DNA of 64,000 bases from Thermodesulfobacteriota bacterium (GCA_964291405.2 OZ219926.1:3552001-3616000), one strand, 5' to 3'. Counted from the stretch's first letter, positions 2,226 to 62,679 are shown. Made by a program: numbers and translations. Notes: a model not told the origin generated them from the letters alone.

Positions 2226-3089
2226 ATGGAATCCCACAGCACTCTCCGCATCTTTGACGGTGCGGTAGCTATCATGACCGGCGGGGCCTCGGGTATCGGG
2301 CGCGCGCTGAGTGAAGCGCTGGGCCGACGCGGGGCAAGTGTGGTCTTAGCTGATCGTCAGATCGAGCTGGCCCAAGAGGTCGCGGCTGGCATCCAAGAAA
2401 AGGGCGGCAAGGCGTCCGCGGTTGAACTGGACGTCACGGACTTCCCTGCGGTAGATCAGTTCGTCCGGGCAACGACCCAGGCGCAAGGCCGGCTGGACTA
2501 TATGTTCAACAACGCCGGCATTGCGATTGGGGGAGAGGTCCGGGTGTGTCAGATTGAGGACTGGGACAATGTCTTGAACGTCAATTTACACGGCGTGGTT
2601 AACGGGGTGCAGGCGGCGTACCCGGTTATGCTCAGCCAGGGCTACGGCCATATCGTCAATACCGCTTCCATGGCCGGTCTGCTGCCCATGCCAACGGCCG
2701 TCAGCTATGCAGCAACCAAACATGCGGTTGTCGGCCTGTCAAAATCACTCCGGGTTGAAGCCGCGTCCTACGGGATCCGTGTCAGCGTGCTCTGTCCTGG
2801 GTTTATTCGGACACCTATCCTGTACGGCGGGAAGTACGGCAAGAACTTGCAGTCCGTGCCGCCAGAAGTCCAGGAAAAATTCATACGGAAATACCGGCCC
2901 ATGGACCCGGCTGTGTTTGCTGAAAAAGTGCTAGACACGCTGGCCCGGAACAAACCCCTGATCATTGTTCCGGGCTGGTGGAGGCTCTTTTGGTGGCTAA
3001 GTCGCCTCTCACCAGCGCTGGAGTTTTCTCTCGCCCAACGCAGCTATCGGTCGGCGCGCAAGGTTATGCAGTCTGAGACAGACGCGTAG
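2226..3089 (+). CDS. Short-chain dehydrogenase/reductase
   Basis: TGGASGIG, NNAG and catalytic YAATK (YxxxK). Confidence 0.92.
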   Translation: MESHSTLRIFDGAVAIMTGGASGIGRALSEALGRRGASVVLADRQIELAQEVAAGIQEKGGKASAVELDVTDFPAVDQFVRATTQAQGRLDYMFNNAGIAIGGEVRVCQIEDWDNVLNVNLHGVVNGVQAAYPVMLSQGYGHIVNTASMAGLLPMPTAVSYAATKHAVVGLSKSLRVEAASYGIRVSVLCPGFIRTPILYGGKYGKNLQSVPPEVQEKFIRKYRPMDPAVFAEKVLDTLARNKPLIIVPGWWRLFWWLSRLSPALEFSLAQRSYRSARKVMQSETDA

Positions 3090-3108
3090 CGTGGGCGATA
3101 GGCCCAGG

Positions 3109-3687
3109 TCAGGCGACCTGCTCAGCCCCGTTGGTATGTGTCTCCGACAGCGGACACACGCCGCCTTTTTCTAAGCCGAGCGCCCGGATAAAACGCCCAT
3201 AGCCGACAAAAGCCGTAATCCGAAACCCGAGGTCTATGATCTCCGGCTCGGTGAAGTACTGGCGCAGTTCGTCAAACAGTTCTGGTGAGGCTTGGGTATG
3301 ATCTCCGGCTAACACGTCGGCATAGCGGACGGCAGCCCTTTCACGCGGGGTGAGAATCTCGCTGTCGGCATAGATTGACAGTTCGCCGATTTGTTCTTCC
3401 GTCAGACCTTGTTGCTTTGCCAAAGCAACGCGACCGTTAATTCAAAGGGCACAGTCGTTGCGTTCCGCGACCTTCAGCCGCACCATCTCGGTCAGCTTCA
3501 TATCGATGCTGCCACGGGTCTCAAAGATGAGCGGGAAGTAATAGTTGACGAAAGACTTGAATACCTCAGGGGCATGGGCGAAGGCCTGCAAGAACGCCGA
3601 GCCGCCATACTCCTTGTCATAGGTCTGCATGATCTGCTGAACCTCAGGATCGATCTGCTCAAATGGAACCGGACTGACATGCGCCAT
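3109..3687 (-). CDS. AhpD/carboxymuconolactone-decarboxylase family selenoprotein (CxxU), 192 aa by UGA read-through
   Basis: ORFs 3442..3687 and 3109..3423 are in the same frame, separated only by TGA (3444-3442) and six sense codons. Read-through gives ...KVAERNDC-A-L-U-INGRVALAKQQGLTEEQI...ERAAVRYADVL, one continuous CMD fold. AAGGAGG precedes ATG 3687; no RBS precedes TTG 3423. Confidence 0.85.
3411..3429 (-). promoter_or_regulatory. Candidate bacterial SECIS element
   Basis: Minus strand GTTGCTTT-GGC-AAAGCAAC: a perfect 8-bp stem starting 13 nt after the in-frame UGA, with an apical loop beginning with G at +21. Confidence 0.7.
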
Positions 3688-3844
3688 AACACTCCCTCCT
3701 TACTCAGCTTGTGTGTACTCCTTCTAGGGGTGAGGAGGCAAGGGGAGATCGTGCTCTATCCCTCTCCTTTCAGAAGGTAGCTTACCTGCTATCCTTATCC
3801 CTCTGTGCGTACACTACAGACGGCTGTTATGTGAAGGAGGAAAA

Positions 3845-4459
3845 ATGATTACGCTCTACCATGTCCCCGGCGCCCGTTCGACGCGTTCTCTCTGGCTGTT
3901 GCATGAACTGGGCGTTGAGTTTGAACTCGTGGAGATGGCCTTTGATCTCAAGGTGCTGCGCGCGCCCGAGTATCTCGCTATCCATCCGCTCGGCCGAGTT
4001 CCCTGCCTGGTTGACGATGGGCAGACGATTTTCGAGTCGGGTGCGATCGCGCAGTATTTATGCGAAAAATACGACGATGGCAGGCTTGGCCGCGGTCCCA
4101 GTCATCCGGAGCGGTATGAATGGTTGCAGTGGATACACTACGCCGAAACCGTCGCCGTTCATGGTGCCAGCCTGGTCCAGCAGTCGGTCTTTATTCCCGA
4201 AGAACAACGTTCGCCCATTATTCAGAAATTGGAATCGCGTCGATTGGAAAAGGCGGTTGAGGTGTTGGACAACCACCTCAAAGATCGGGACTACTTGCTC
4301 GCCAGTGGATTTTCCGCCGCCGATGTGAACGTCGGCTATAGTATCTACCTGGGAGATCAGTTCCTCAGCTTTGACGCCTTCCCCACGGCGATGCAGTATT
4401 ACGACCGGCTGAGAGAACGCCCAGCCTTTCAGGCCTCGGTTCCAAAAAAGGAAGGATAA
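3845..4459 (+). CDS. Glutathione S-transferase family protein
   Basis: RS.R..WLLHELG, HPLGRVPCL and FESGAI motifs; RBS AAGGAGG. Confidence 0.92.
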   Translation: MITLYHVPGARSTRSLWLLHELGVEFELVEMAFDLKVLRAPEYLAIHPLGRVPCLVDDGQTIFESGAIAQYLCEKYDDGRLGRGPSHPERYEWLQWIHYAETVAVHGASLVQQSVFIPEEQRSPIIQKLESRRLEKAVEVLDNHLKDRDYLLASGFSAADVNVGYSIYLGDQFLSFDAFPTAMQYYDRLRERPAFQASVPKKEG

Positions 4460-4834: not shown

Positions 4835-5929
4835 CTACAGCGGTGGCAATAGCCGGGCGTCTTGGAAGCGTTTGAAGCACGCCCGGAAATTGTCTTCCGT
4901 ATCCAGGCATTCGTGAAAGCCGGCTTGCCGCAGTTTGATTGTACTCACCAGCATGGGCGGTGGAGACTGGTCTCTGCTGCCATAGCCGAATGTAAAATCA
5001 GCCAGAATAAAGGACTGTCCCACAAATTCTTTCAAGCTGGTGGGGGCGCGTAGATCGTACTGCTTGACAATAGCCGCCCACTCGGCTTCATGCTTGGGCA
5101 TCTCTTCCGCAAGAGAGCATGGCTCTGGTGGGCCCACCTCCATGCCTAGCGCATCAGCGATAGCTGGCCACACATTTTGCCACACAAAGACATCACCGTT
5201 CGTAATATTAAAAATTTCGTTCTGCGCGTTTTCTGATGTCCCTGCCCACTCGCACGCTCGGGCAATCATTCCTGCATCAATTGCTTCGAGAACAAAAGAT
5301 GGGCCACCGGGGAAGGACAAGGGTAGCCCGGCCTCCTTGCGCAACGCAGCATACACGCCCAGAGCAGGAATGACGTTCATATTGCTACCCAGCGATTGTC
5401 CCAGGATGAGTTGAGGTCGCCAGACTGTCCAGTGCCAGTTTTTGCCGGGCTGTCGCTCGCGCAAATAATCTTCTTGTAGAAAATAGAAGTTCTCGTGTTG
5501 GTGGCGCGGCCAGCGTTCGCGGGCCGGGACGGGAAAGGGTTCAATATGCACTCCATACGCCTTTGTGCCTTGGAGTAAAGAGACGTGCTGAAGGTTTTGC
5601 GCGACGGCTTCGAGTGGAGAGAAGAGATTATCCAGCATGGCCAGATTGGTTTCCATCTGGTCTTTCTGAAACCAGCCTTCGACCAGCCCTGGCTTTTCGT
5701 ACAGCGCCGTATAGATCAGATGGGTCACGTCCGACATGCGGCCAAAGACTTCCGCACAGCGGGCCGTATCCGTCAGATCGACCGAAATGACCTCAGCGCC
5801 TTCGAGTCCGTCAGGGATACGGCGCGAAACCCCAACCACATCCCAATCGTCCTGCTGCGCGAAGTGCTCGACCGCGGCGTAACCAACCAAACCGGATGCA
5901 CCCGCCACCAACATCTTTTTCTTGGACAT
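4835..5929 (-). CDS. PRISE-type (progesterone 5-beta-reductase/iridoid synthase-like) SDR
   Basis: GASGLVG, GVSRR, QGTKAYG, NFYFLQED and WTVWRP match the PRISE motif series. Confidence 0.8.
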   Translation of the reverse strand: MSKKKMLVAGASGLVGYAAVEHFAQQDDWDVVGVSRRIPDGLEGAEVISVDLTDTARCAEVFGRMSDVTHLIYTALYEKPGLVEGWFQKDQMETNLAMLDNLFSPLEAVAQNLQHVSLLQGTKAYGVHIEPFPVPARERWPRHQHENFYFLQEDYLRERQPGKNWHWTVWRPQLILGQSLGSNMNVIPALGVYAALRKEAGLPLSFPGGPSFVLEAIDAGMIARACEWAGTSENAQNEIFNITNGDVFVWQNVWPAIADALGMEVGPPEPCSLAEEMPKHEAEWAAIVKQYDLRAPTSLKEFVGQSFILADFTFGYGSRDQSPPPMLVSTIKLRQAGFHECLDTEDNFRACFKRFQDARLLPPL

Positions 5930-18440: not shown

Positions 18441-19700
18441 TTAACTCGCCCCGTGCCGCGGCGGAGGCACGCCGTTCAGCCAGTAGTTCCCAATGGCGTG
18501 ATATTTCCAGCGCACGGGATCGTGCAGGGTATGGGTACGCGCGTTGCGCCAGTGACGGTTCAGGTTGTACTCCTCCAGCGTTGAGCGGGTGCCGGCCAAC
18601 TCAAACAACTTGTTTGTTGTCAGCACAGAAACTTCCGTGGACATGGCTTTTGCCTCAGCCACGGCAATCGAGGCTTGAGAGACGTTCTCCTCGGTTGGTG
18701 AGGCGACCGCCGCATCCACAAAACGGCCCGCCCGTTCGAGCAGGGCGTCCGAGGCGTGCACCCGGACCTCAAGCTCGCCAATTTGATGAATCGTGTACGG
18801 GTCCTCGTAGCCGTGCTCCTGGCCGCTATCGATCCACGGCCGCGTATACTGACGGACAAAGGCGATCGTCTCGGCCAGGGCTGCGCGGGCGATGCCGGCA
18901 TCGACCGCGGTATGAAAAATTTGAGCAACGGCACCCATCGGGGTGGGCCGATCAAACGCGGCCTGATGGTCGATAATATCAAAAGGCTCGACCGCAACAT
19001 TCTCGAACACCGCAGTCCCGCTGGCCGTGGTCCGCTGGCCGAAGCCTGACCAGTCGTCGATGATGGTGACCCCCGGCGCATCACGCCTGACAAAGACGAT
19101 GGCAATCCGTCCCTGGTCGTCCTTGGCGACAGCCGGTACCCAGTGGGCAAACATCGCACCCGTGGAATAGAACTTTCTGCCGTTCAGGAGGAATTTGTCG
19201 CCGGAGGCCGTGAGGTGCGTCTGAAAGTCAAAGACGGTTTTTGTGCCGCGCTCGACAAAGGCATTCCCAAAGCGATCGCCCTCCAACACCCGTTTGAAAA
19301 GGAACTCCTTTTGCTCCTCGGTCCCGTCCAGTCGGACGGCTTCGATCATATAGTAATGATTCTGGGGAATCTGGCCTAAAGACGAATCCGCGGCTGATAT
19401 GACGGCCGTGACCTCGGCCGCGGTCGAGAAGGACACCCCCGCCCCACCGTATGCTTTCGGAATAGTGATGCCCCATAAGCCGCTCTGCGAGAATTCGTCC
19501 AATTCTTTATGCGGCAGGCGGCGCTCGCGGTCGCGCTCGGCCGACTCCTGCTGAAAGCGCTCGGCGAGACGGTGGGCAACTGCCAGGGCTTCCTGATCGT
19601 CACGAATAATGTGGGCAGGAGCCTCAACCCGCGCCATTGGTGCGGCGACTCGAATACCTTGATCCGGTGGAGCGGTAGCTTGCGAGGACGCTTGGCTCAT
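18441..19700 (-). CDS. SfnB/DszC-like sulfur-acquisition flavin monooxygenase (acyl-CoA dehydrogenase fold)
   Basis: QIPQNH, FGNAF, DDWSGFGQRTTASG and RHWRNARTHTLHDPVRWK. Confidence 0.9.
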   Translation of the reverse strand: MSQASSQATAPPDQGIRVAAPMARVEAPAHIIRDDQEALAVAHRLAERFQQESAERDRERRLPHKELDEFSQSGLWGITIPKAYGGAGVSFSTAAEVTAVISAADSSLGQIPQNHYYMIEAVRLDGTEEQKEFLFKRVLEGDRFGNAFVERGTKTVFDFQTHLTASGDKFLLNGRKFYSTGAMFAHWVPAVAKDDQGRIAIVFVRRDAPGVTIIDDWSGFGQRTTASGTAVFENVAVEPFDIIDHQAAFDRPTPMGAVAQIFHTAVDAGIARAALAETIAFVRQYTRPWIDSGQEHGYEDPYTIHQIGELEVRVHASDALLERAGRFVDAAVASPTEENVSQASIAVAEAKAMSTEVSVLTTNKLFELAGTRSTLEEYNLNRHWRNARTHTLHDPVRWKYHAIGNYWLNGVPPPRHGAS

Positions 19701-19722
19701 ATATTCTCCCTGGCCTGTTCTT

Positions 19723-21003
19723 CTATATCCACGCGTGGCGTGGCGGCTTGATATTATTCAGATAGTAATTGCCGATGGCCTGGAACTTCCACCGGACGGG
19801 ATCGTGCAGTGTATGCGTGCGGGCATTCCGCCAGTGGCGATCCAGATTGTACTCTTCGAGTGTAGAGCGAGTGCCGGCGAGCTCAAACAACTTGTTGGTC
19901 GCCTGAATGGCGATTTCCGTGGTCAGAACTTTTGCTTCAGCCACGGCAATAGACGCCGCGGCTACACTGTCTTCATTCGGATTGGCCATTGCTGCATCGA
20001 CCGTGCGGCCAGCCCGGTCCAGGATGGCCTCTGCCGCGTGCAAGCGCATTTTCAGGTCTCCTATTTGAGCAATGGAGTACATGTCCTCATAGCCGTGCTC
20101 CTGACCGCTATCGATCCACGGACGGGTATAGCTGCGGACAAAGTGGATGGTTTCATCAATCGCGGCCTGGGCAATACCGAGATCGATGCCGGCATGAATA
20201 ATCTGTAAGACTGCCCCGTTCGCGGTTGGTATATCGTACGCTTCATGCGCCGGGATAACATGGCTGGCCGGCACGAATGCGTCCTCCAGCAGAACGGTCC
20301 CACTGGCGGTGGTGCGTTGGCCGAAACTCGACCAGTCATCAATAATGCGCATCCCCGGCCCATCGCGTTCCACAAAGGCAAGCTGCGCTTTGCCGCGCTC
20401 ATCGGTCGCTGCGACCGGCACCATATGGGCGAGAAGCGCGCCGCTGCAATAAAACTTTTGTCCATTCACGACATAGCCGTCCCCGTGGGGACGTATTTGC
20501 GTTTCAAAATGGCCGACGGTTTTGCTGCCTTTTTCGGAAAAAGCATTGCCGAGGCGCATGCCTTTTAAGACCTCGCCAAAGAAAAAACGCTTCTGCTCCT
20601 CACTGGCGCACAGACGAATGATATCGAGTAGACCAAGATGGTTTTGCGGAATCTGTCCGAGCGACGGGTCGGCCGCGGAGATAATTTTAATCACCTCGCC
20701 CACCGTGACATACGAGACCTCGGCGCCGCCATAGACTTTGGGTACGGTCATGCCCCACAAGCCGCTCTGCGAGAATGCGTCCAGTTCGGCAAGCGGCAGT
20801 CGGCGTTCCCGGTCACGCAGCGCCGCTTCCTGCGCAAAGCTTTTTGCCAAACGGTGGGCGATATCAACCGCTTCCCGGTCGTCCTGAATAATATGGGCAG
20901 GTGTGGTGGGACGCGGTGGGCCGAAGGCCTCCAGGTCTTCGATCCGAGATGTTCCATTCGTTTCTGAACGGTCTATTAGTCTTTCACTGTCTTCCCTGCT
21001 CAT
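19723..21003 (-). CDS. SfnB/DszC-like sulfur-acquisition flavin monooxygenase, paralog
   Basis: Same motifs as its neighbour. AAAGGAG precedes ATG 21003, so the ORF-track start at 21141 is too long. Confidence 0.9.
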   Translation of the reverse strand: MSREDSERLIDRSETNGTSRIEDLEAFGPPRPTTPAHIIQDDREAVDIAHRLAKSFAQEAALRDRERRLPLAELDAFSQSGLWGMTVPKVYGGAEVSYVTVGEVIKIISAADPSLGQIPQNHLGLLDIIRLCASEEQKRFFFGEVLKGMRLGNAFSEKGSKTVGHFETQIRPHGDGYVVNGQKFYCSGALLAHMVPVAATDERGKAQLAFVERDGPGMRIIDDWSSFGQRTTASGTVLLEDAFVPASHVIPAHEAYDIPTANGAVLQIIHAGIDLGIAQAAIDETIHFVRSYTRPWIDSGQEHGYEDMYSIAQIGDLKMRLHAAEAILDRAGRTVDAAMANPNEDSVAAASIAVAEAKVLTTEIAIQATNKLFELAGTRSTLEEYNLDRHWRNARTHTLHDPVRWKFQAIGNYYLNNIKPPRHAWI

Positions 21004-21046
21004 GGCCGCTATAGCTCCTTTGCATAGCTCTGAAAGGGGACTCCGT

Positions 21047-21075
21047 AGCCTATCGTTCACCCTCCTGAGCGTCAA
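21047..21075 (-). promoter_or_regulatory. Putative sigma70 promoter of the SfnB-like pair
   Basis: Minus strand TTGACG-17 nt-TAGGCT. Confidence 0.5.
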
Positions 21076-21159
21076 CGCGCTTCGTCGGCGTGTTGCTTGA
21101 CTTTGGCAGGGCAGGGTGTCATGACAGGCGCAGAGTGCCAATGTCTAAAGGAGGGTCAG

Positions 21160-35845: not shown

Positions 35846-36003
35846 GGAAGCGTATCCGGTTGGCTTGTGAGGCCCATTCTCAGTTGTTACTTCAGGACTG
35901 GTGCGAGATGGACCGGGCGCTCGAAGGAGACCGGTATGGTCCTTCTCTATAAGCAGTGTCTCAGGAATCTGAGAGGCATAACCAGGTTAAGAGGTTGAAC
36001 AAT

Positions 36004-37041
36004 ATGGAAAACCCGTCAAGCGATAAAATGCGCCTGGGCTTCTGGACGCCAGTGTATGGCAATTGGATCATCTCAAAAGACCCAGACACGATGGATGCCT
36101 CCTTTGAGTATACCAAGCGCCTGACACTGCTGGCCGAAGAGCTGGACTTTGCCACTGTGTTGCTGGCCGAGCATACGTTTAATCCGTTTGGCCCCGAGCT
36201 GAATCAGCAGGACGCTTGGACGACCAGTGCGGCCTTGGCCGCAATTACTAAGAACATTGAACTTATGCCGGCCGTGCGTCCGGCCTTTAAGCATCCGGCA
36301 ACAGTGGCCAAGATGGCCTGTAGTATTGACGAGATTAGTGGTGGCCGAGCCGCGCTTAACCTTGTGACTGGCTGGTGGCAACGTGAATGGGAGGCGATGG
36401 GATTACCACCCATGCCGCACGATGATCGCTATGTCCGATCTGAAGAATTTCTCACCATTCTCAAAGGACTGTGGACCCAGCCGCATTTTAGTTTTGAAGG
36501 ACGCTATTATCAGATCGACGATATTACCCTGACGCCGCCTCCCATTCGTAAACCACATCCGACCATTTACTTTGGTGGAGAGTCTGACGTGGCTCAGCGT
36601 TTGGCGGCAAAGCTCGCCGATGTGTATCTCATAAACGGACGTCCAGTAGATGAAACAAAGACGTTGGTCGATCAAGTTCGTGCCTCTGCGGCAGAACAGG
36701 GCCGTGAGGTACAGTTTGGTATGAGCGCGTTCGTGATCTGCCGTGACTCAACGACGGCAGCGCAAGAAGAACACGCCCGGCTGCATAGCCTACGCTATGA
36801 AGAACCGATCGCTGGCGTTGACCGTAAAGCTGTCATGACTCGGACGTACGGATACGCAGTCGGCCATATTGGTACAAACGGCGGAACAGCCGCCGGCATG
36901 GTGGGTACTCCTCAACAGATCGCCGATCAGTTCCGTGCCTTTCAAGACATTGGCGTGACCACTTTTCTCCTCCAGTTTCATCCCATGTTGGAAGAGATGG
37001 AACGCTTTGGGGAATACGTTATTCCGCGTCTCTGTGTGTAA
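36004..37041 (+). CDS. LLM class monooxygenase (SsuD/SfnG-like)
   Basis: AVRP, AKMA.SID.ISGGR..LNLVTGW, HDDRY..SEEF, YFGGES and VGTPQQIA. Confidence 0.88.
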   Translation: MENPSSDKMRLGFWTPVYGNWIISKDPDTMDASFEYTKRLTLLAEELDFATVLLAEHTFNPFGPELNQQDAWTTSAALAAITKNIELMPAVRPAFKHPATVAKMACSIDEISGGRAALNLVTGWWQREWEAMGLPPMPHDDRYVRSEEFLTILKGLWTQPHFSFEGRYYQIDDITLTPPPIRKPHPTIYFGGESDVAQRLAAKLADVYLINGRPVDETKTLVDQVRASAAEQGREVQFGMSAFVICRDSTTAAQEEHARLHSLRYEEPIAGVDRKAVMTRTYGYAVGHIGTNGGTAAGMVGTPQQIADQFRAFQDIGVTTFLLQFHPMLEEMERFGEYVIPRLCV

Positions 37042-58715: not shown

Positions 58716-60530
58716 CTATGCGTCGGCGACGCGCATGGCTGCCCGAAGGGCTGTGGTGGCCGCTTCGTCAATCGTCCTGGTTGCGATATCCACAACCACA
58801 CCATAGACGCTACGCGCCTTCTCCACAGAGATATACTCGTCCAGCGTATCGTCGAGGACCTCTTGTACGGGACGGTCGAGCGGATTACCCCAACCGCCGC
58901 CGCCGGTGGTTTCAAACCAGAAGGTGTCACCATAGGAGAGCTTGTGACCGCGCAGCAGGGGATTGAGCCAGCGATTGTCCTCGGTCAGACCGCCGACAAT
59001 GTTTTGCGTGCCATCCGCACGGAGGTGCCACAGCCGTTGGGGCGAACTCCGCTGTCCGCCGTTCACGCCTGGGGTGCCCTCGCGCGTACGGGCCGTTTCC
59101 ACGCTCATCGCGCCCTCGCAGAGGAAGCGGATTTTGAGATGGGACCCAACCCCGCCCCGATGGTGGCCGTCCCCGGCCGAGTCTTGCCGAATATCAAAAG
59201 CTTCATAGGCAATCGGGAACATCAGCTCTGCGGTCTCCGCTTCCATATTCATGCAGTTGCCCAGCGGATCCATGGTGACATTCATGCCGTCATTAAACGG
59301 GGTCCCGCCCCAGCCGCCGGCCGGCAGGTCCGAGAAGACATCGGTTTTCCCGTCCGGCTCACGCACGCCACACACAAACCAGTTGCAGTCGCCGCACGCG
59401 GAGCCGACCGCGCGGTCGGGCAGGGCGTTGGCAATCGCCTGCCAGACCGCGCTGGCAACTTTCGGGGCGGCCAGCACCGTACAGCCGATGGTCGGGGCCG
59501 GCCATTTGGGGTTCAGCCAGCAGTCGTCGGGTAAGACCACGCTGATCGGGTTGAACATGCCCTCGTTTTGCGGCGCGCTGGGTTCCAGGAAAAACTGGAG
59601 GGAGTAAAAGACCGCAGAGTGGGTATTGGCCTTGGGCGAGTTGATAGCGCCAAGACACTGGGGGTCGGAGCCGGTCAGGTCTACGGTGATATCCGAGTCT
59701 TTGACCGTCAGGGTCACTTTGACTTTGACAGGATCATCGCTCTGGCCGTCGGTATCGGCATAATCCTCGCCGGTATATACCCCGTCCGGGATACTCTCGA
59801 TTTTCTTGCGGACAATCCGCTCGGTATAGGCAATCAGCTCGGCCATGGCGGCCTTGATCGTCTCCAGACCGTACCGCTCGGCCGCGGACTGCATTTCTTC
59901 TTCTGCGGCTTTAAGACAGCCGACATGGGCCTGGAGGTCACCCTGGATAAAATGCGGGGTGCGCGTATTGGCCAGCAGAATCTTGAGGATTTCCGGCTTG
60001 ACCTCATTGTTTTCAAAGGCTTTGATGGGCGGCAGGCGAAGCCCCTCTTCCGCGATATGCGTGCCCCACGACTGGCCGCCCGGCGCCCCGCCACCAAAGT
60101 CCATCCAATGACCCCGGCTGACCGCAAAGCCCAGCAGCTCCGTGTCTTTGTAAAAAATCGGCTTAATCCAGGAGATGTCGTTAATATGGGTGCCGCCCCG
60201 GTACGGGTCGTTGACCACATAGATGTCGCCGTCCTTCATATTCTCGATGCCGAACTCGTCCCGCACGGCATGGGCCGAAAACTTCATGGCCGCCAGATGG
60301 ACGGGAACATTGGCGGCTTGGCTCAACAGCCGCATCTCCGGGTCATAAATGGCGTTTGAGAAATCAACCATATCGGACAGAATCGGCGAGAACGACGCTC
60401 GTTGGAGCACCGCGGTCATCCGATCGCAGGTATACTCAAACAGATTCCGCAAGACCTCAAAGGTAATATGATCGAGTCCTGTCCGGTTTTTAATGCTGTC
60501 GCCCGTTTTTTCGAGTGCGCTGGATTGCAT
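58716..60530 (-). CDS. Hydantoinase B/oxoprolinase family protein
   Basis: DFSNAI, PVH, NDPY.GGTH.ND, HW.D.GG, EEGL, DSAG.G..RGG and GGGGWG.P; AGGAGG 6 nt before ATG 60530. Confidence 0.93.
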   Translation of the reverse strand: MQSSALEKTGDSIKNRTGLDHITFEVLRNLFEYTCDRMTAVLQRASFSPILSDMVDFSNAIYDPEMRLLSQAANVPVHLAAMKFSAHAVRDEFGIENMKDGDIYVVNDPYRGGTHINDISWIKPIFYKDTELLGFAVSRGHWMDFGGGAPGGQSWGTHIAEEGLRLPPIKAFENNEVKPEILKILLANTRTPHFIQGDLQAHVGCLKAAEEEMQSAAERYGLETIKAAMAELIAYTERIVRKKIESIPDGVYTGEDYADTDGQSDDPVKVKVTLTVKDSDITVDLTGSDPQCLGAINSPKANTHSAVFYSLQFFLEPSAPQNEGMFNPISVVLPDDCWLNPKWPAPTIGCTVLAAPKVASAVWQAIANALPDRAVGSACGDCNWFVCGVREPDGKTDVFSDLPAGGWGGTPFNDGMNVTMDPLGNCMNMEAETAELMFPIAYEAFDIRQDSAGDGHHRGGVGSHLKIRFLCEGAMSVETARTREGTPGVNGGQRSSPQRLWHLRADGTQNIVGGLTEDNRWLNPLLRGHKLSYGDTFWFETTGGGGWGNPLDRPVQEVLDDTLDEYISVEKARSVYGVVVDIATRTIDEAATTALRAAMRVADA

Positions 60531-60568
60531 GACCATCCTCCTGCAAATGGAACACTGATTCTGCCCGA

Positions 60569-62626
60569 CTATCGTCCTACCTGTATAATAAGATTACCCT
60601 GGGTATCAATAGTTGCCTGCGCGCCGGGCGGCAGCACGGCCACCGAATCCAGATATTCCAGAATCGCCGGTCCCCGAAGCTCTGCGCCGGGCTGGAGAAT
60701 TTGGCCGTTGTAAATCGGACAGTCGATCCATTCTCCAGAGAAATACACCGAGCGAGCGCTTTTCATGGCCACGACATTTTCTGCGGCGACACTTTTATAG
60801 GGAGGCAGGGCTGCGGTTGGCGCTGTCGCTGCGAGACTCAGAGAAACAAACGCCGGGTCGAAGATATCCGAACTGACCCCATGCTCCTGCTTGTGTACGG
60901 CGTGAAAGGTATCGGCAATGGTGACAAGGGCATCCTTGGTGAGCGCGCCGCCCGGAATGGGGGTTTCAATTTCATATGTCTGGCCCACATAGCGCATCTG
61001 GGCGGTGCGGTTGATGAGCACATTTCCCGCTGAGACATTATCGCGAGCGAGCAGAGTACGGGCCGTCCGTTCGAGTTCGGCATACACGCTATTCAGTCGG
61101 TCCAGGTCAACCTCCCCAATCGGGGCGTACATGAATTGCTCGACGTCCTGGCGGACATCCATGACGGTTGCTCCAAAGGCCGAGGCCACCCCGGCGGCCG
61201 CCGGGACGATGACTTTCGGAATATTCATGGCCCGGGCAACAAAGCAGGCGTGCATGGGCCCGGCTCCACCAAAACTGGTCAGCACAAAATCGCGCGGGTC
61301 ACGGCCTCTATTAATAATGACCCTTTTGACGGCCTGGGCCATAATCTCACAGCTGATCTGGATCATGGCGTCCGCGGTCTCGACCGTCGACAGGCCCAGT
61401 TGCTCAGCAACGGTACTCACCGCCTGTTCAGCCGCCTGCCGGTCCAGATTGATTTTTCCCCCCAGGGTCGGCTCCAGACGGCCGAGCAGCAGGTTGGCGT
61501 CCGTGATCGTCGGCTCGGTCCCCCCGTTGCCATAACAGGCCGGTCCTGGTTGCGAACCGGCGCTGCGCGGCCCCACCCGGAGCGAGCCGCCGCCATCCAC
61601 CCAGCCGATCGAGCCACCGCCGGCACCCACGCTGTGGATGTCGAGCATGGGCAGGATGATCGGCAGCTCAAATTCGAGTTCATACTCGCGGGTGACGAGT
61701 CCCTTGCCATCTTCGACTATCGAGGCGTCAAAACTCGTGCCGCCCATGTCCGCGCAAATAATACTGGGCTCGTGTATGGCATCGGCCAGATAGCCGGCAT
61801 AGGCCACCCCACCGGCCGGTCCGGACTCCAGCAGCTCTTCCGGATGTTCCTTGGCCAGATCGACACCCATCACGCCGCCGCTGCTTTTGAGAATCAACAG
61901 GGAGCCGTCAAAGCCTTGTTGGGTGAGGCGTTCCAGCAGATGATCGAAATAGGCTCCCATCACCGGCTTGAGCGCGGCGCTCACCGCAGTGGTGACAAAG
62001 CGACCGTGCTCGCGGAACAGGGGTCGCGTCTCGCCCGACAGCATAATATGCGCGTCAGGAATGTGTTCGAGCAGGATGTCGCGCATCTGCCGCTCATGAT
62101 CGGCGTTGACATAGGAATTGATGAAACACACCGCAATGGAGCGGATTCCCTCCGCCTTGATTGTTTCGGCCACCTGCTGCGCGGCCGCGGTATCGAGTGG
62201 GCGTTCTTCTTTCCCCTTGACGTTAATGCGTTGCGGGACCGTGTAGCGATAGCGACGCCGAATGAGCGGTTTGGGTTTGACCTGATAGGGGTCGTACAGG
62301 TCTTTCCGATGCTGACGGCCGATTTCAATAGTATCGCGAAAGCCCTGGGTGGTGACCAGGGCCGGGGCCGGGTAGGAGCGCTCGATCAGGGCATTGGTTG
62401 CGGTGGTCGTGCCATGGACCAGGCAGGAGATCTGGTCAAACGGAATACCCGATTGCTCGACCGCTTCAAGAGAATCCCGGGCGGCCTTTTTGACGGCCTC
62501 AATGACACCAACGGAGCGGTCCCAGGGGGTGGTCAGAACCTTGGCCGTGACGCGCTCACCGGTCGTTTCCTCCCAGCCAAACAGGTCGGTAAATGTTCCG
62601 CCAACATCGACGCCTACCCGCCACAT
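60569..62626 (-). CDS. Hydantoinase A/oxoprolinase family protein (ATP-binding)
   Basis: VDVGGTFTD, HGTTTATNA, SGPAGG, DMGGTS.D, VGPRSAGS.PGPACY and FGGAG. Confidence 0.94.
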   Translation of the reverse strand: MWRVGVDVGGTFTDLFGWEETTGERVTAKVLTTPWDRSVGVIEAVKKAARDSLEAVEQSGIPFDQISCLVHGTTTATNALIERSYPAPALVTTQGFRDTIEIGRQHRKDLYDPYQVKPKPLIRRRYRYTVPQRINVKGKEERPLDTAAAQQVAETIKAEGIRSIAVCFINSYVNADHERQMRDILLEHIPDAHIMLSGETRPLFREHGRFVTTAVSAALKPVMGAYFDHLLERLTQQGFDGSLLILKSSGGVMGVDLAKEHPEELLESGPAGGVAYAGYLADAIHEPSIICADMGGTSFDASIVEDGKGLVTREYELEFELPIILPMLDIHSVGAGGGSIGWVDGGGSLRVGPRSAGSQPGPACYGNGGTEPTITDANLLLGRLEPTLGGKINLDRQAAEQAVSTVAEQLGLSTVETADAMIQISCEIMAQAVKRVIINRGRDPRDFVLTSFGGAGPMHACFVARAMNIPKVIVPAAAGVASAFGATVMDVRQDVEQFMYAPIGEVDLDRLNSVYAELERTARTLLARDNVSAGNVLINRTAQMRYVGQTYEIETPIPGGALTKDALVTIADTFHAVHKQEHGVSSDIFDPAFVSLSLAATAPTAALPPYKSVAAENVVAMKSARSVYFSGEWIDCPIYNGQILQPGAELRGPAILEYLDSVAVLPPGAQATIDTQGNLIIQVGR

Positions 62627-62679
62627 ATGCTGACATACTCCTTTCGGTGATTCCTTCGCCCTTGCTCCGTGCGCCATGG

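Follow-up and report, generated by a model that had tools for sequence, protein, structure and literature searches.

The gene described here lies on the minus strand of the window, that is, of the whole 64-kb stretch of DNA that was analysed. Positions 3687-3112 of this strand form a single frame, interrupted solely by a TGA at 3444-3442. This codon is in frame between two open reading frames (ORFs). The upstream one (3442..3687) begins with ATG and encodes 81 amino acids. The downstream one (3109..3423) begins with TTG and encodes 104 amino acids. The first-pass annotation of this DNA had described two minus-strand ORFs in one frame, joined by this single TGA, and our coordinates agree with it. 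It had also placed a Shine-Dalgarno sequence at the first ATG only. We see the same: AAGGAGG stands 7 nt before 3687, and none stands before TTG 3423, which is preceded by coding sequence only. The codon after the TGA is ATT. The first start codon 3' of the TGA is a TTG inside a hairpin, so the second piece has neither a Shine-Dalgarno sequence nor an ATG.

Read through the TGA, the product has 192 residues. It contains the segments ...AERNDC79-A-L-U82-I-N-G-R86... and ...EKGGVC178PLSE.... The features of the locus are the following.

3109..3687, minus strand: whole gene; ATG at 3687-3685, 192 sense codons including the putative Sec82, stop codon TGA at 3111-3109
3695..3701, minus strand: Shine-Dalgarno sequence AAGGAGG, 7 nt 5' of ATG 3687, read from the sequence
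3487..3489, minus strand: codon of Glu67, at the AhpD relay Glu position (E-x11-C), aligned with the Glu of PA0269
3451..3453, minus strand: codon TGT of Cys79, which opens the CxxU motif and is kept in 78 of 81 sequences
3442..3444, minus strand: in-frame TGA at the column where CxxC has its second Cys; read as Sec82
3430..3432, minus strand: codon CGC of Arg86, at the AhpD relay His position, opposite the His of the PA0269 motif CAYCVNMH in the alignment
3411..3429, minus strand: SECIS-like hairpin with an 8-bp stem (-8.1 kcal/mol), in which 3429-3422 pairs with 3418-3411
3154..3156, minus strand: codon TGT of Cys178, in the C-terminal G-x-x-C-P-[LI] tail; Cys in 81 of 81 sequences

The read-through protein matches the Pfam CMD family (PF02627) across the TGA. 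The match covers residues 40-124 and profile positions 1-83 of 84, and its 50.5 bits clear the cut-off of 23. The two halves stay under that value when taken singly (16.7 and 19.2 bits). The earlier assignment to the AhpD/CMD family agrees with this score. In what we take to be a Candidatus Binatia bacterium, 3687-3109 is very probably a single gene. It would encode a 192-residue AhpD-like selenoprotein, part of the CMD superfamily, with selenocysteine (Sec) presumably inserted at codon 82. A selenoenzyme of 192 amino acids with Sec82 had been proposed at first pass. The Pfam span, the TGA or TGC codons of the column and the covariation of the hairpin give support to this proposal.

The bare pattern of a TGA and a hairpin energy is not beyond chance, and it is protein homology and comparative data that carry the argument. 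The window has 57% G+C and contains 84 sites where a TGA has at least 50 open codons on both sides. At two others of these 84 sites a Cys adjoins the TGA, presumably off-frame. The 66-nt stretch after the TGA folds no better than its shuffles (z +0.49). The hairpin alone, taken as 25 nt, is mildly unusual: its energy of -8.1 kcal/mol corresponds to a z of -1.79, and 7 of 200 shuffles are equally good.

Split gene calls and the UGA column

A search of 5.8 billion proteins gave 42 matches among 166 candidates. Ten of them are full-length (186-198 amino acids), one has 247 amino acids, and the other 31 are pieces of the C-terminal half (106-125 amino acids). We aligned 28 of the 42 matches, namely the ten full-length proteins and 18 pieces. 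Twelve of these pieces begin directly after U, and six begin further along. Likewise, when 1.84 billion representatives were searched with a profile, 8205 relatives came out at E<=0.001, with 47 at E<=1e-30. Among the best 150 of the 8205, nine begin at profile position 83 and four end at 80 or 81. Three of the four N-terminal pieces end with ...NQCDL, ...SSAKP and ...NQCQL, immediately ahead of U. There are C-terminal pieces that start at U+1 and N-terminal pieces that run up to U, and therefore the gene is systematically split in public calls. Gene callers cut it in two because the in-frame UGA is conserved and almost certainly encodes Sec. Such a splitting had been foreseen for this gene, and the 31 pieces among 42 matches, with 12 of the 18 aligned ones starting at U+1, bear it out. 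A dedicated family model would repair many of these split records at once.

The same lists could be taken literally, as two separate small genes: one for an N-terminal protein of 81 amino acids and another for a C-terminal protein of about 104-110 amino acids. Both pieces are present in the lists of gene callers. Pieces of 106-125 amino acids make up 31 of the 42 matches, and nine starts at 83 and four ends at 80/81 occur among the best 150 of the 8205 representatives. However, we give this reading next to no credence. The second piece lacks a Shine-Dalgarno sequence and an ATG in the window, and neither half reaches the Pfam cut-off. The homologs of the Cys form are single chains. Moreover, C79 and U82 would sit on different pieces.

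In the ten full-length database homologs, the U column contains Cys in nine (C-x-L/V/S-C) and W in one, the JGI protein P0009. This W is probably a TGA called as Trp by the gene caller. The nine Cys agree with the first-pass placement of the UGA at the second Cys of CxxC. We also made one scan of the GTDB species representatives, which gave 151 relatives, and kept the best 80 loci. Of these best 80 of the 151, 76 carry TGA at the U column and four carry TGC (L058, L061, L065 and L077). The best 80 loci (of 151) come from independent assemblies of several phyla. In 80 of the 80, the frame is open from ATG or GTG through the U codon, over 180-204 codons. The closest relatives among the best 80 are Candidatus Binatia MAGs with 91-97% protein identity (L001-L015 and L079). 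The centre of the family among these relatives is in Binatia and related soil and groundwater MAGs, plus a gammaproteobacterial branch.

We estimated the dN/dS ratio against 16 orthologs of the same length. Codons 1-81 give values of 0-0.08, and codons 83-192 values of 0.10-0.22. Judged by these ratios, both halves are under purifying selection, and the portion after the TGA is translated and constrained.

A pseudogene with a nonsense mutation, or a TGA that is a sequencing error, would equally give a recognisable domain split by a single in-frame TGA, and 84 such flanked TGA sites occur in the window by chance. Nevertheless, this explanation is hardly tenable. The TGA is found in 76 of the best 80 independent assemblies (of 151) across several phyla, and all of these 80 loci are open to 180-204 codons. 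The dN/dS values of 0.10-0.22 after the TGA and the compensatory changes in the downstream stem also argue against it.

The TGA codon does not seem to have another meaning in this genome. The stop codons of the 48 family-matched ORFs in the window (of 66 scanned with NCBIfam) are TAA in 19, TAG in 17 and TGA in 12. TGA ends 12 of the 48, and therefore it is not reassigned genome-wide. The gene's own stop codon is also TGA.

The hairpin downstream of the UGA

The hairpin consists of the arms GTTGCTTT (3429-3422) and AAAGCAAC (3418-3411), which form a perfect 8-bp stem around the loop GGC (3421-3419). It starts 13 nt after the TGA, which leaves 20 nt from the UGA to the loop. The bSECIS model, as given in the legend of Fig. 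2 of PMC13188914, allows 3-9 nt for the loop and 4-16 bp for the stem, and asks for a G in the first two loop positions. It further has 16-37 nt from the UGA to the loop and a minimum free energy of at most -7.5 kcal/mol. With its loop GGC, 8 bp, 20 nt and -8.1 kcal/mol, the hairpin of the window lies within all these limits of PMC13188914.

We aligned the hairpin without gaps in the 66 Sec loci outside the gammaproteobacterial branch, which give 49 distinct rows. Over these rows, 91.8% of the stem cells are paired. Five of the eight stem pairs change on both sides; for instance, one pair appears as U-A, C-G and G-C. No pair varies on one side only, and one departs only through unpaired cells. 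The covariation score was reached by none of 500 shuffles. When the partner is slid by 1-3 columns, the pairing falls to 40-60%, compared with 91.8% in register. The outermost G-C pair is confined to the window's own clade. In several of the compensations, a synonymous change of an Ala codon goes together with a replacement of Lys by Arg or Ala on the opposite arm. On this alignment, the coupling between the Ala and Lys arms is not explained by coding constraint alone.

The 11 gammaproteobacterial loci present another hairpin. It has 7 bp, lies about 2.5 nt upstream and is 17 nt from the UGA. Its loop is GGTC, AGTT or AGGT, 95.7% of its cells are paired, and two of its pairs are compensatory. 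The loop G is invariant in both hairpin alignments. Placed in the register of the 8-bp stem, the four TGC loci form only 1, 2, 3 and 5 of its pairs.

The first-pass annotation had reported a perfect 8-bp hairpin with a G-led loop 13 nt downstream. That structure is there, fits the bSECIS model and covaries. The annotation had named TGA or Cys in the column of the homologs as support for Sec, and varied residues, TAA or TAG with no conserved hairpin as evidence against it. The 76 TGA and four TGC of the best 80 loci (of 151) are the only codons in the column, and the hairpin is conserved through covariation.

An Rfam scan gave no match for the whole window at gathering thresholds, nor for 3350-3500 at E up to 10. 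This result says little because bacterial SECIS elements are, to our knowledge, mostly absent from Rfam.

Proposed decoding of the UGA and probable selenocysteine use in the lineage

We propose that the UGA of codon 82 is read as selenocysteine during translation. The hairpin at 13-31 nt downstream would act as a bacterial SECIS element. Judging from its fit to the bSECIS model, it would bring SelB, loaded with Sec-tRNA(Sec), to a ribosome that has paused at this codon.

None of this machinery was found in the window itself. The genes selA, selB and selD were not found among the 66 window ORFs scanned with NCBIfam (a scan that covers the ORFs other than the gene's own two). ARAGORN found no tRNA genes in the 64-kb window, and therefore there is no tRNA-Sec locally. 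A second candidate comes from a relative. In the Binatia contig L020, a UGSC gene (Pfam PF24696) lies 1.4 kb downstream of the homolog. UGSC is a classic selenoprotein family. This gene presents an in-frame TGA exactly at ...LCA-U-GSC..., followed by 95 more codons. It also has a 7-bp hairpin with the loop UGUAU, which stands 18 nt after the UGA. The two predicted selenoprotein genes, the present one and the UGSC gene of L020, indicate that Candidatus Binatia uses selenocysteine.

Another possibility is that UGA-82 is recoded to a residue other than Sec. It could be Cys, through a SelB-like and SECIS-dependent route, or Trp, through near-cognate read-through. SECIS-dependent insertion of Cys exists in some bacteria. 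There are no sel genes among the 66 window ORFs and no tRNA in the window, and a W is recorded in the column of P0009, though this is most simply the code choice of a gene caller. We consider such a recoding very unlikely on four grounds. The column is that of the redox Cys of CxxC, and its sole alternative codon is TGC (best 80 of 151). The hairpin fits a Sec-specific model with the G at the start of the loop. AhpD-like CxxU proteins are an established selenoprotein class. Finally, the UGSC gene of L020 shows the same TGA pattern.

In the literature searched, no paper joined Binatia or Binatota to selenoproteins, and selenocysteine appeared at most within a reference list. Neither the review PMC13188914 nor the BSepDB paper contains the string 'Binat'. 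The subfamily may be listed in the supplements of the GOS, Sargasso and BSepDB studies.

Fold, active site and known relatives

We modelled the protein with AlphaFold2 on an alignment of 41 rows. The model is all-helical, with a pLDDT of 88 and a pTM of 0.82. Only residues 171-192 are weak, and in the tail around Cys178 (residues 171-180) the pLDDT is 61. The best Foldseek match in the PDB is PA0269, the AhpD-like protein from Pseudomonas aeruginosa (TMt 0.89, rmsd 1.9, 29% identity). The structures matched over the full length are the debrominase Bmp8 (TMq 0.75) and three peroxidase-related proteins, 2oyo, 6k40 and 2prr (0.75-0.78). The modelled protein has an AhpD-like fold.

PA0269 (2o4d, 2ijc and 7xw1) is also the best solved relative by sequence (E 8.7e-16), and it shares the helix hairpin with Glu-x11-Cys-x-x-Cys. 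According to PMC3141380, the AhpD relay in PA0269 consists of Glu36, Cys48, Tyr50, Cys51 and His55. Both Cys and the relay His are described there as invariant among the AhpD-like structures compared. In the phmmer alignment to PA0269, E67, C79, L81, U82 and R86 occupy the relay places. Compared with the present protein, PA0269 has Cys instead of Sec, Tyr instead of Leu81 and His55 instead of Arg86. It is 145 amino acids long, without the roughly 57 N-terminal residues and the C-terminal Cys tail. The same paper reports that it reduces H2O2 weakly.

The family conserves most of these positions. Position 67 is Glu and position 82 is U or Cys in 81 of 81 sequences, and His130 is likewise present in all 81. 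The first Cys (C79) is kept in 78 of 81; the remaining three loci read SSAKPU. Position U-1 is Leu in 78 of 81. Arg at U+4 occurs in 78 as well, and the other three have Val at that position and Arg at +2. The C-terminal Cys is present in all 81, as CPL in 65, CPI in nine, CSL in five, CRL in one and CPV in one. An Arg in place of His (CxxUxxxR) and an extra C-terminal Cys (GGVCPL) had already been pointed out in the single sequence of the window, and both extend to the relatives. Tested as an AhpD-like relay, the protein has the Glu and both catalytic positions (Cys79 and U82 or Cys); the relay His is absent, with Arg instead. The Arg is also found in the Cys-form clade and is therefore a mark of the family, independent of Sec. 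The relay His is replaced by Arg86, and therefore the canonical AhpD chemistry is not guaranteed.

The protein would be a thiol/selenol oxidoreductase with the redox centre C79-A-L-U82. In M. tuberculosis AhpD, Cys133, the second Cys of the motif, is the attacking nucleophile. Because Sec replaces this second Cys, the equivalent of Cys133, we assign the role of nucleophile to U82 and that of resolving thiol to C79. The U82 selenolate would attack an oxidised substrate, which might be a peroxide, a protein sulfenate or a disulfide. C79 would then resolve the adduct to a selenenylsulfide, and an external thiol reductant would restore the redox centre. Cys178, on its flexible C-terminal tail, could be a second resolving or shuttle thiol. 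It may act as a resolver, as suggested at first pass, and the three SSAKPU loci, which lack C79 and keep the tail Cys, are consistent with this role.

No partner and no function emerge from the gene context. Neither an AhpC or peroxiredoxin neighbour nor a conserved operon was found among the window ORFs and in the flanks of 16 representative loci. Nor is there a shared partner, by Pfam, among the 60 flanking ORFs of these 16 loci. Synteny (SDR, YbaK-like, GST and amidohydrolase) is limited to close Binatia orthologs. A glutathione S-transferase (GST) gene lies divergently upstream in the window and in the closest orthologs, which amounts to 12 of the best 80 loci (of 151). A promoter and terminator scan of 2900-4000 is uninformative: promoter-like sites are absent, and the single terminator-like site falls within the SDR gene.

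A selenoprotein with other thiol chemistry, for example reductive dehalogenation or detoxification of electrophiles, could be suggested instead of an AhpD-type peroxide or AhpC reductase. The change of the relay His to Arg86 in 78 of 81, the C-terminal Cys, the lack of an AhpC neighbour and the divergent GST gene of the window and the closest orthologs point in this direction. So does Bmp8 (6ohi and 6ohj), which is the best full-length solved homolog by profile. It aligns from profile positions 15-173 to 22-179 with E 3.9e-9, has its CxxC in the same column and is likewise without His at +4. However, Bmp8 is a debrominase with Cys and not Sec, and its identity is just 15-16%. The GST neighbour occurs in 12 of the best 80 loci (of 151), all of them close relatives. 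Glu67, C79 and U82 retain the AhpD geometry in sequence. We regard the proposal as unlikely.

AhpD-like CxxU selenoproteins are a recognised class, as the first-pass annotation held. They have been known since 2005. PMC1088965 gives 27 such sequences (COG2128) from the Sargasso Sea, and PMC2398784 gives 299 sequences of 'AhpD-like 1' (COG2128) and 70 of 'AhpD-like 2' (pfam02627) from GOS. In a comparison by description, those proteins share with ours the CMD/AhpD fold, the CxxU motif, Cys homologs in the column and a small G-containing hairpin just after the UGA. The table of the 2026 review PMC13188914 lists TIGR01926, PF02627, NF041047 and NF041238 in its AhpD-like entries, with TIGR01926 as the model given for 'AhpD-like protein'.

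The present protein has the CxxU motif, and JGI names its homologs 'alkylhydroperoxidase family enzyme'. We take this to be the name of COG2128. Two NCBI models have the same architecture of about 180 amino acids. For NF053654, 'YciW-related (seleno)protein', residues 1-170 match positions 1-169 of 179, with 76.1 bits against a cut-off of 310. For TIGR01926, 'peroxidase-related enzyme', residues 4-171 match positions 3-172 of 178, with 50.9 bits against a cut-off of 81.8. All 41 family members tested match both models below their cut-offs, and the best E value is 2e-23, for NF053654. The scores are far below the cut-offs, and therefore the NCBI models would neither name the protein nor mark the Sec.

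M. tuberculosis AhpD was absent among the sequence matches at E up to 1. It shares a CxxC-type centre and the relay Glu with our protein, and its relay residues are given as Glu118, Cys130, His132, Cys133 and His137 in PMC3141380. By the same paper, it differs in topology and in its trimeric state. Moreover, it works with AhpC from the same promoter, whereas the present gene has no AhpC neighbour.

The earlier suggestion of a distinct subfamily stands in part. No curated NCBIfam model claims the family, but the AhpD-like CxxU kind has long been known. The protein is most probably an AhpD-like selenoprotein of an established type. Its branch is set apart by the Arg in place of His, the invariant C-terminal Cys and the NCBIfam scores. 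A stronger view would make it a separate selenoenzyme family and not a copy of the marine ones, with an Arg active site, an invariant Cys on a mobile tail that would exchange electrons with the C79/U82 centre, and maybe a substrate other than peroxide or AhpC, as in its relative Bmp8. We advance this view tentatively and find it rather doubtful. If it were true, the SSAKPU variants, which lack Cys79, would have no resolving thiol other than the tail Cys. The family would be almost fixed for Sec (76 of the best 80 loci) with a pair of paralogs in each Binatia genome, and Binatia would be an unrecognised selenium-using lineage.

A tree built from 41 rows, with a bootstrap that had not settled, explains the Sec/Cys label with two changes. 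There is one proteobacterial Cys clade of eight, and L077 (Cys) adjoins the Sec-bearing L076. Two distant Cys outgroups are placed on long branches. A branch that is nearly always Sec beside a clade with only Cys makes a compact natural setting in which to ask what advantage Sec brings to a CxxC-type centre. The replacement of His by Arg and the invariant tail Cys add to the value of such a Sec/Cys comparison. Finally, 12 contigs or chromosomes carry two loci each, an ortholog and a paralog of about 63% identity, with TGA in both. The window itself has one copy only.

Paralogs and variants at the Sec column

The AhpD-like gene (window 3109-3687, minus strand) occurs once in the 64-kb window. 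Two paralogs per contig or chromosome are present in 12 Binatia records, as seen among the best 80 of 151 relatives in GTDB species representatives. These pairs of loci are L011 and L021, L015 and L024, L006 and L025, L014 and L026, L010 and L027, L008 and L028, L005 and L031, L009 and L032, L003 and L034, L013 and L036, L079 and L037, and L012 and L071. Paired paralogs share about 63% identity. Both members of all 12 pairs have TGA at the Sec column, where the second Cys of CxxC would align.

A variant clade (loci L068, L074 and L075) presents S-S-A-K-P-U at codons 77-82, replacing N-x-C-x-L-U. The first Cys is missing, and Sec and the C-terminal Cys are retained. At L068, a Redoxin/AhpC-TSA plus Thioredoxin_10 gene (1675-2775) precedes the AhpD-like gene, and a thioredoxin gene lies nearby (1177-1509).

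The database homolog P0009, a JGI protein, shows tryptophan at the Sec column (motif C-F-L-W). Here the gene caller, working on a short contig, probably applied a code in which TGA means Trp. Double-domain chains of 340-410 amino acids, with two matched stretches each, are found among the best 150 of 8205 relatives (P0044, P0054 and others). In P0044, the first copy has an intact CxxC; the second carries N-Q-S-P-N-D-M at the same place.

The hairpin in the gammaproteobacterial branch

This branch comprises loci L059, L060, L062-L064, L066, L067, L069, L070, L072 and L073. Its hairpin has a 7-bp stem and a 4-nt loop, about 10-28 nt past the TGA. Relative to the Binatia hairpin, the register is different and the centre is shifted upstream by about 2.5 nt. 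The structure is retained between the two branches, while its sequence and position are shifted.

A UGSC-family gene with an in-frame TGA

On the Binatia contig of L020, the AhpD-like homolog is followed 1.4 kb downstream by another gene:

L020:4718-5287, plus strand: UGSC-family gene (Pfam PF24696), in-frame TGA at 4997-4999

The TGA falls exactly at the U of LCA-U-GSC, and the frame continues for 95 codons past it. A hairpin with a 7-bp stem has its loop 18 nt from the UGA. The gene appears to be the Binatia lineage's second split selenoprotein gene, after the AhpD-like one.

Other reading frames of the window

3391-3780, plus strand: ORF of 129 amino acids, antisense to the selenoprotein gene
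58716-62677, minus strand: gene pair like caprolactamase or acetophenone-carboxylase alpha and beta subunits
18441-21141, minus strand: SfnB-family pair
35956-37041, plus strand: SfnG-like monooxygenase gene

The antisense ORF has no family match. Most likely, the frame is open as a side effect of G+C-rich coding sequence on the other strand. The subunit-like pair scores 481 and 308 bits, both far under the equivalog cut-off of 1000. The SfnG-like gene is also below its cut-off. The two adjoining SfnB-family sulfur-acquisition oxidoreductase genes exceed theirs (649 and 652 bits). Genes for LLM oxidoreductases that depend on F420 or FMN are numerous across the window. Together with the SfnB pair and the SfnG-like gene, this predicted content points to organosulfur scavenging.
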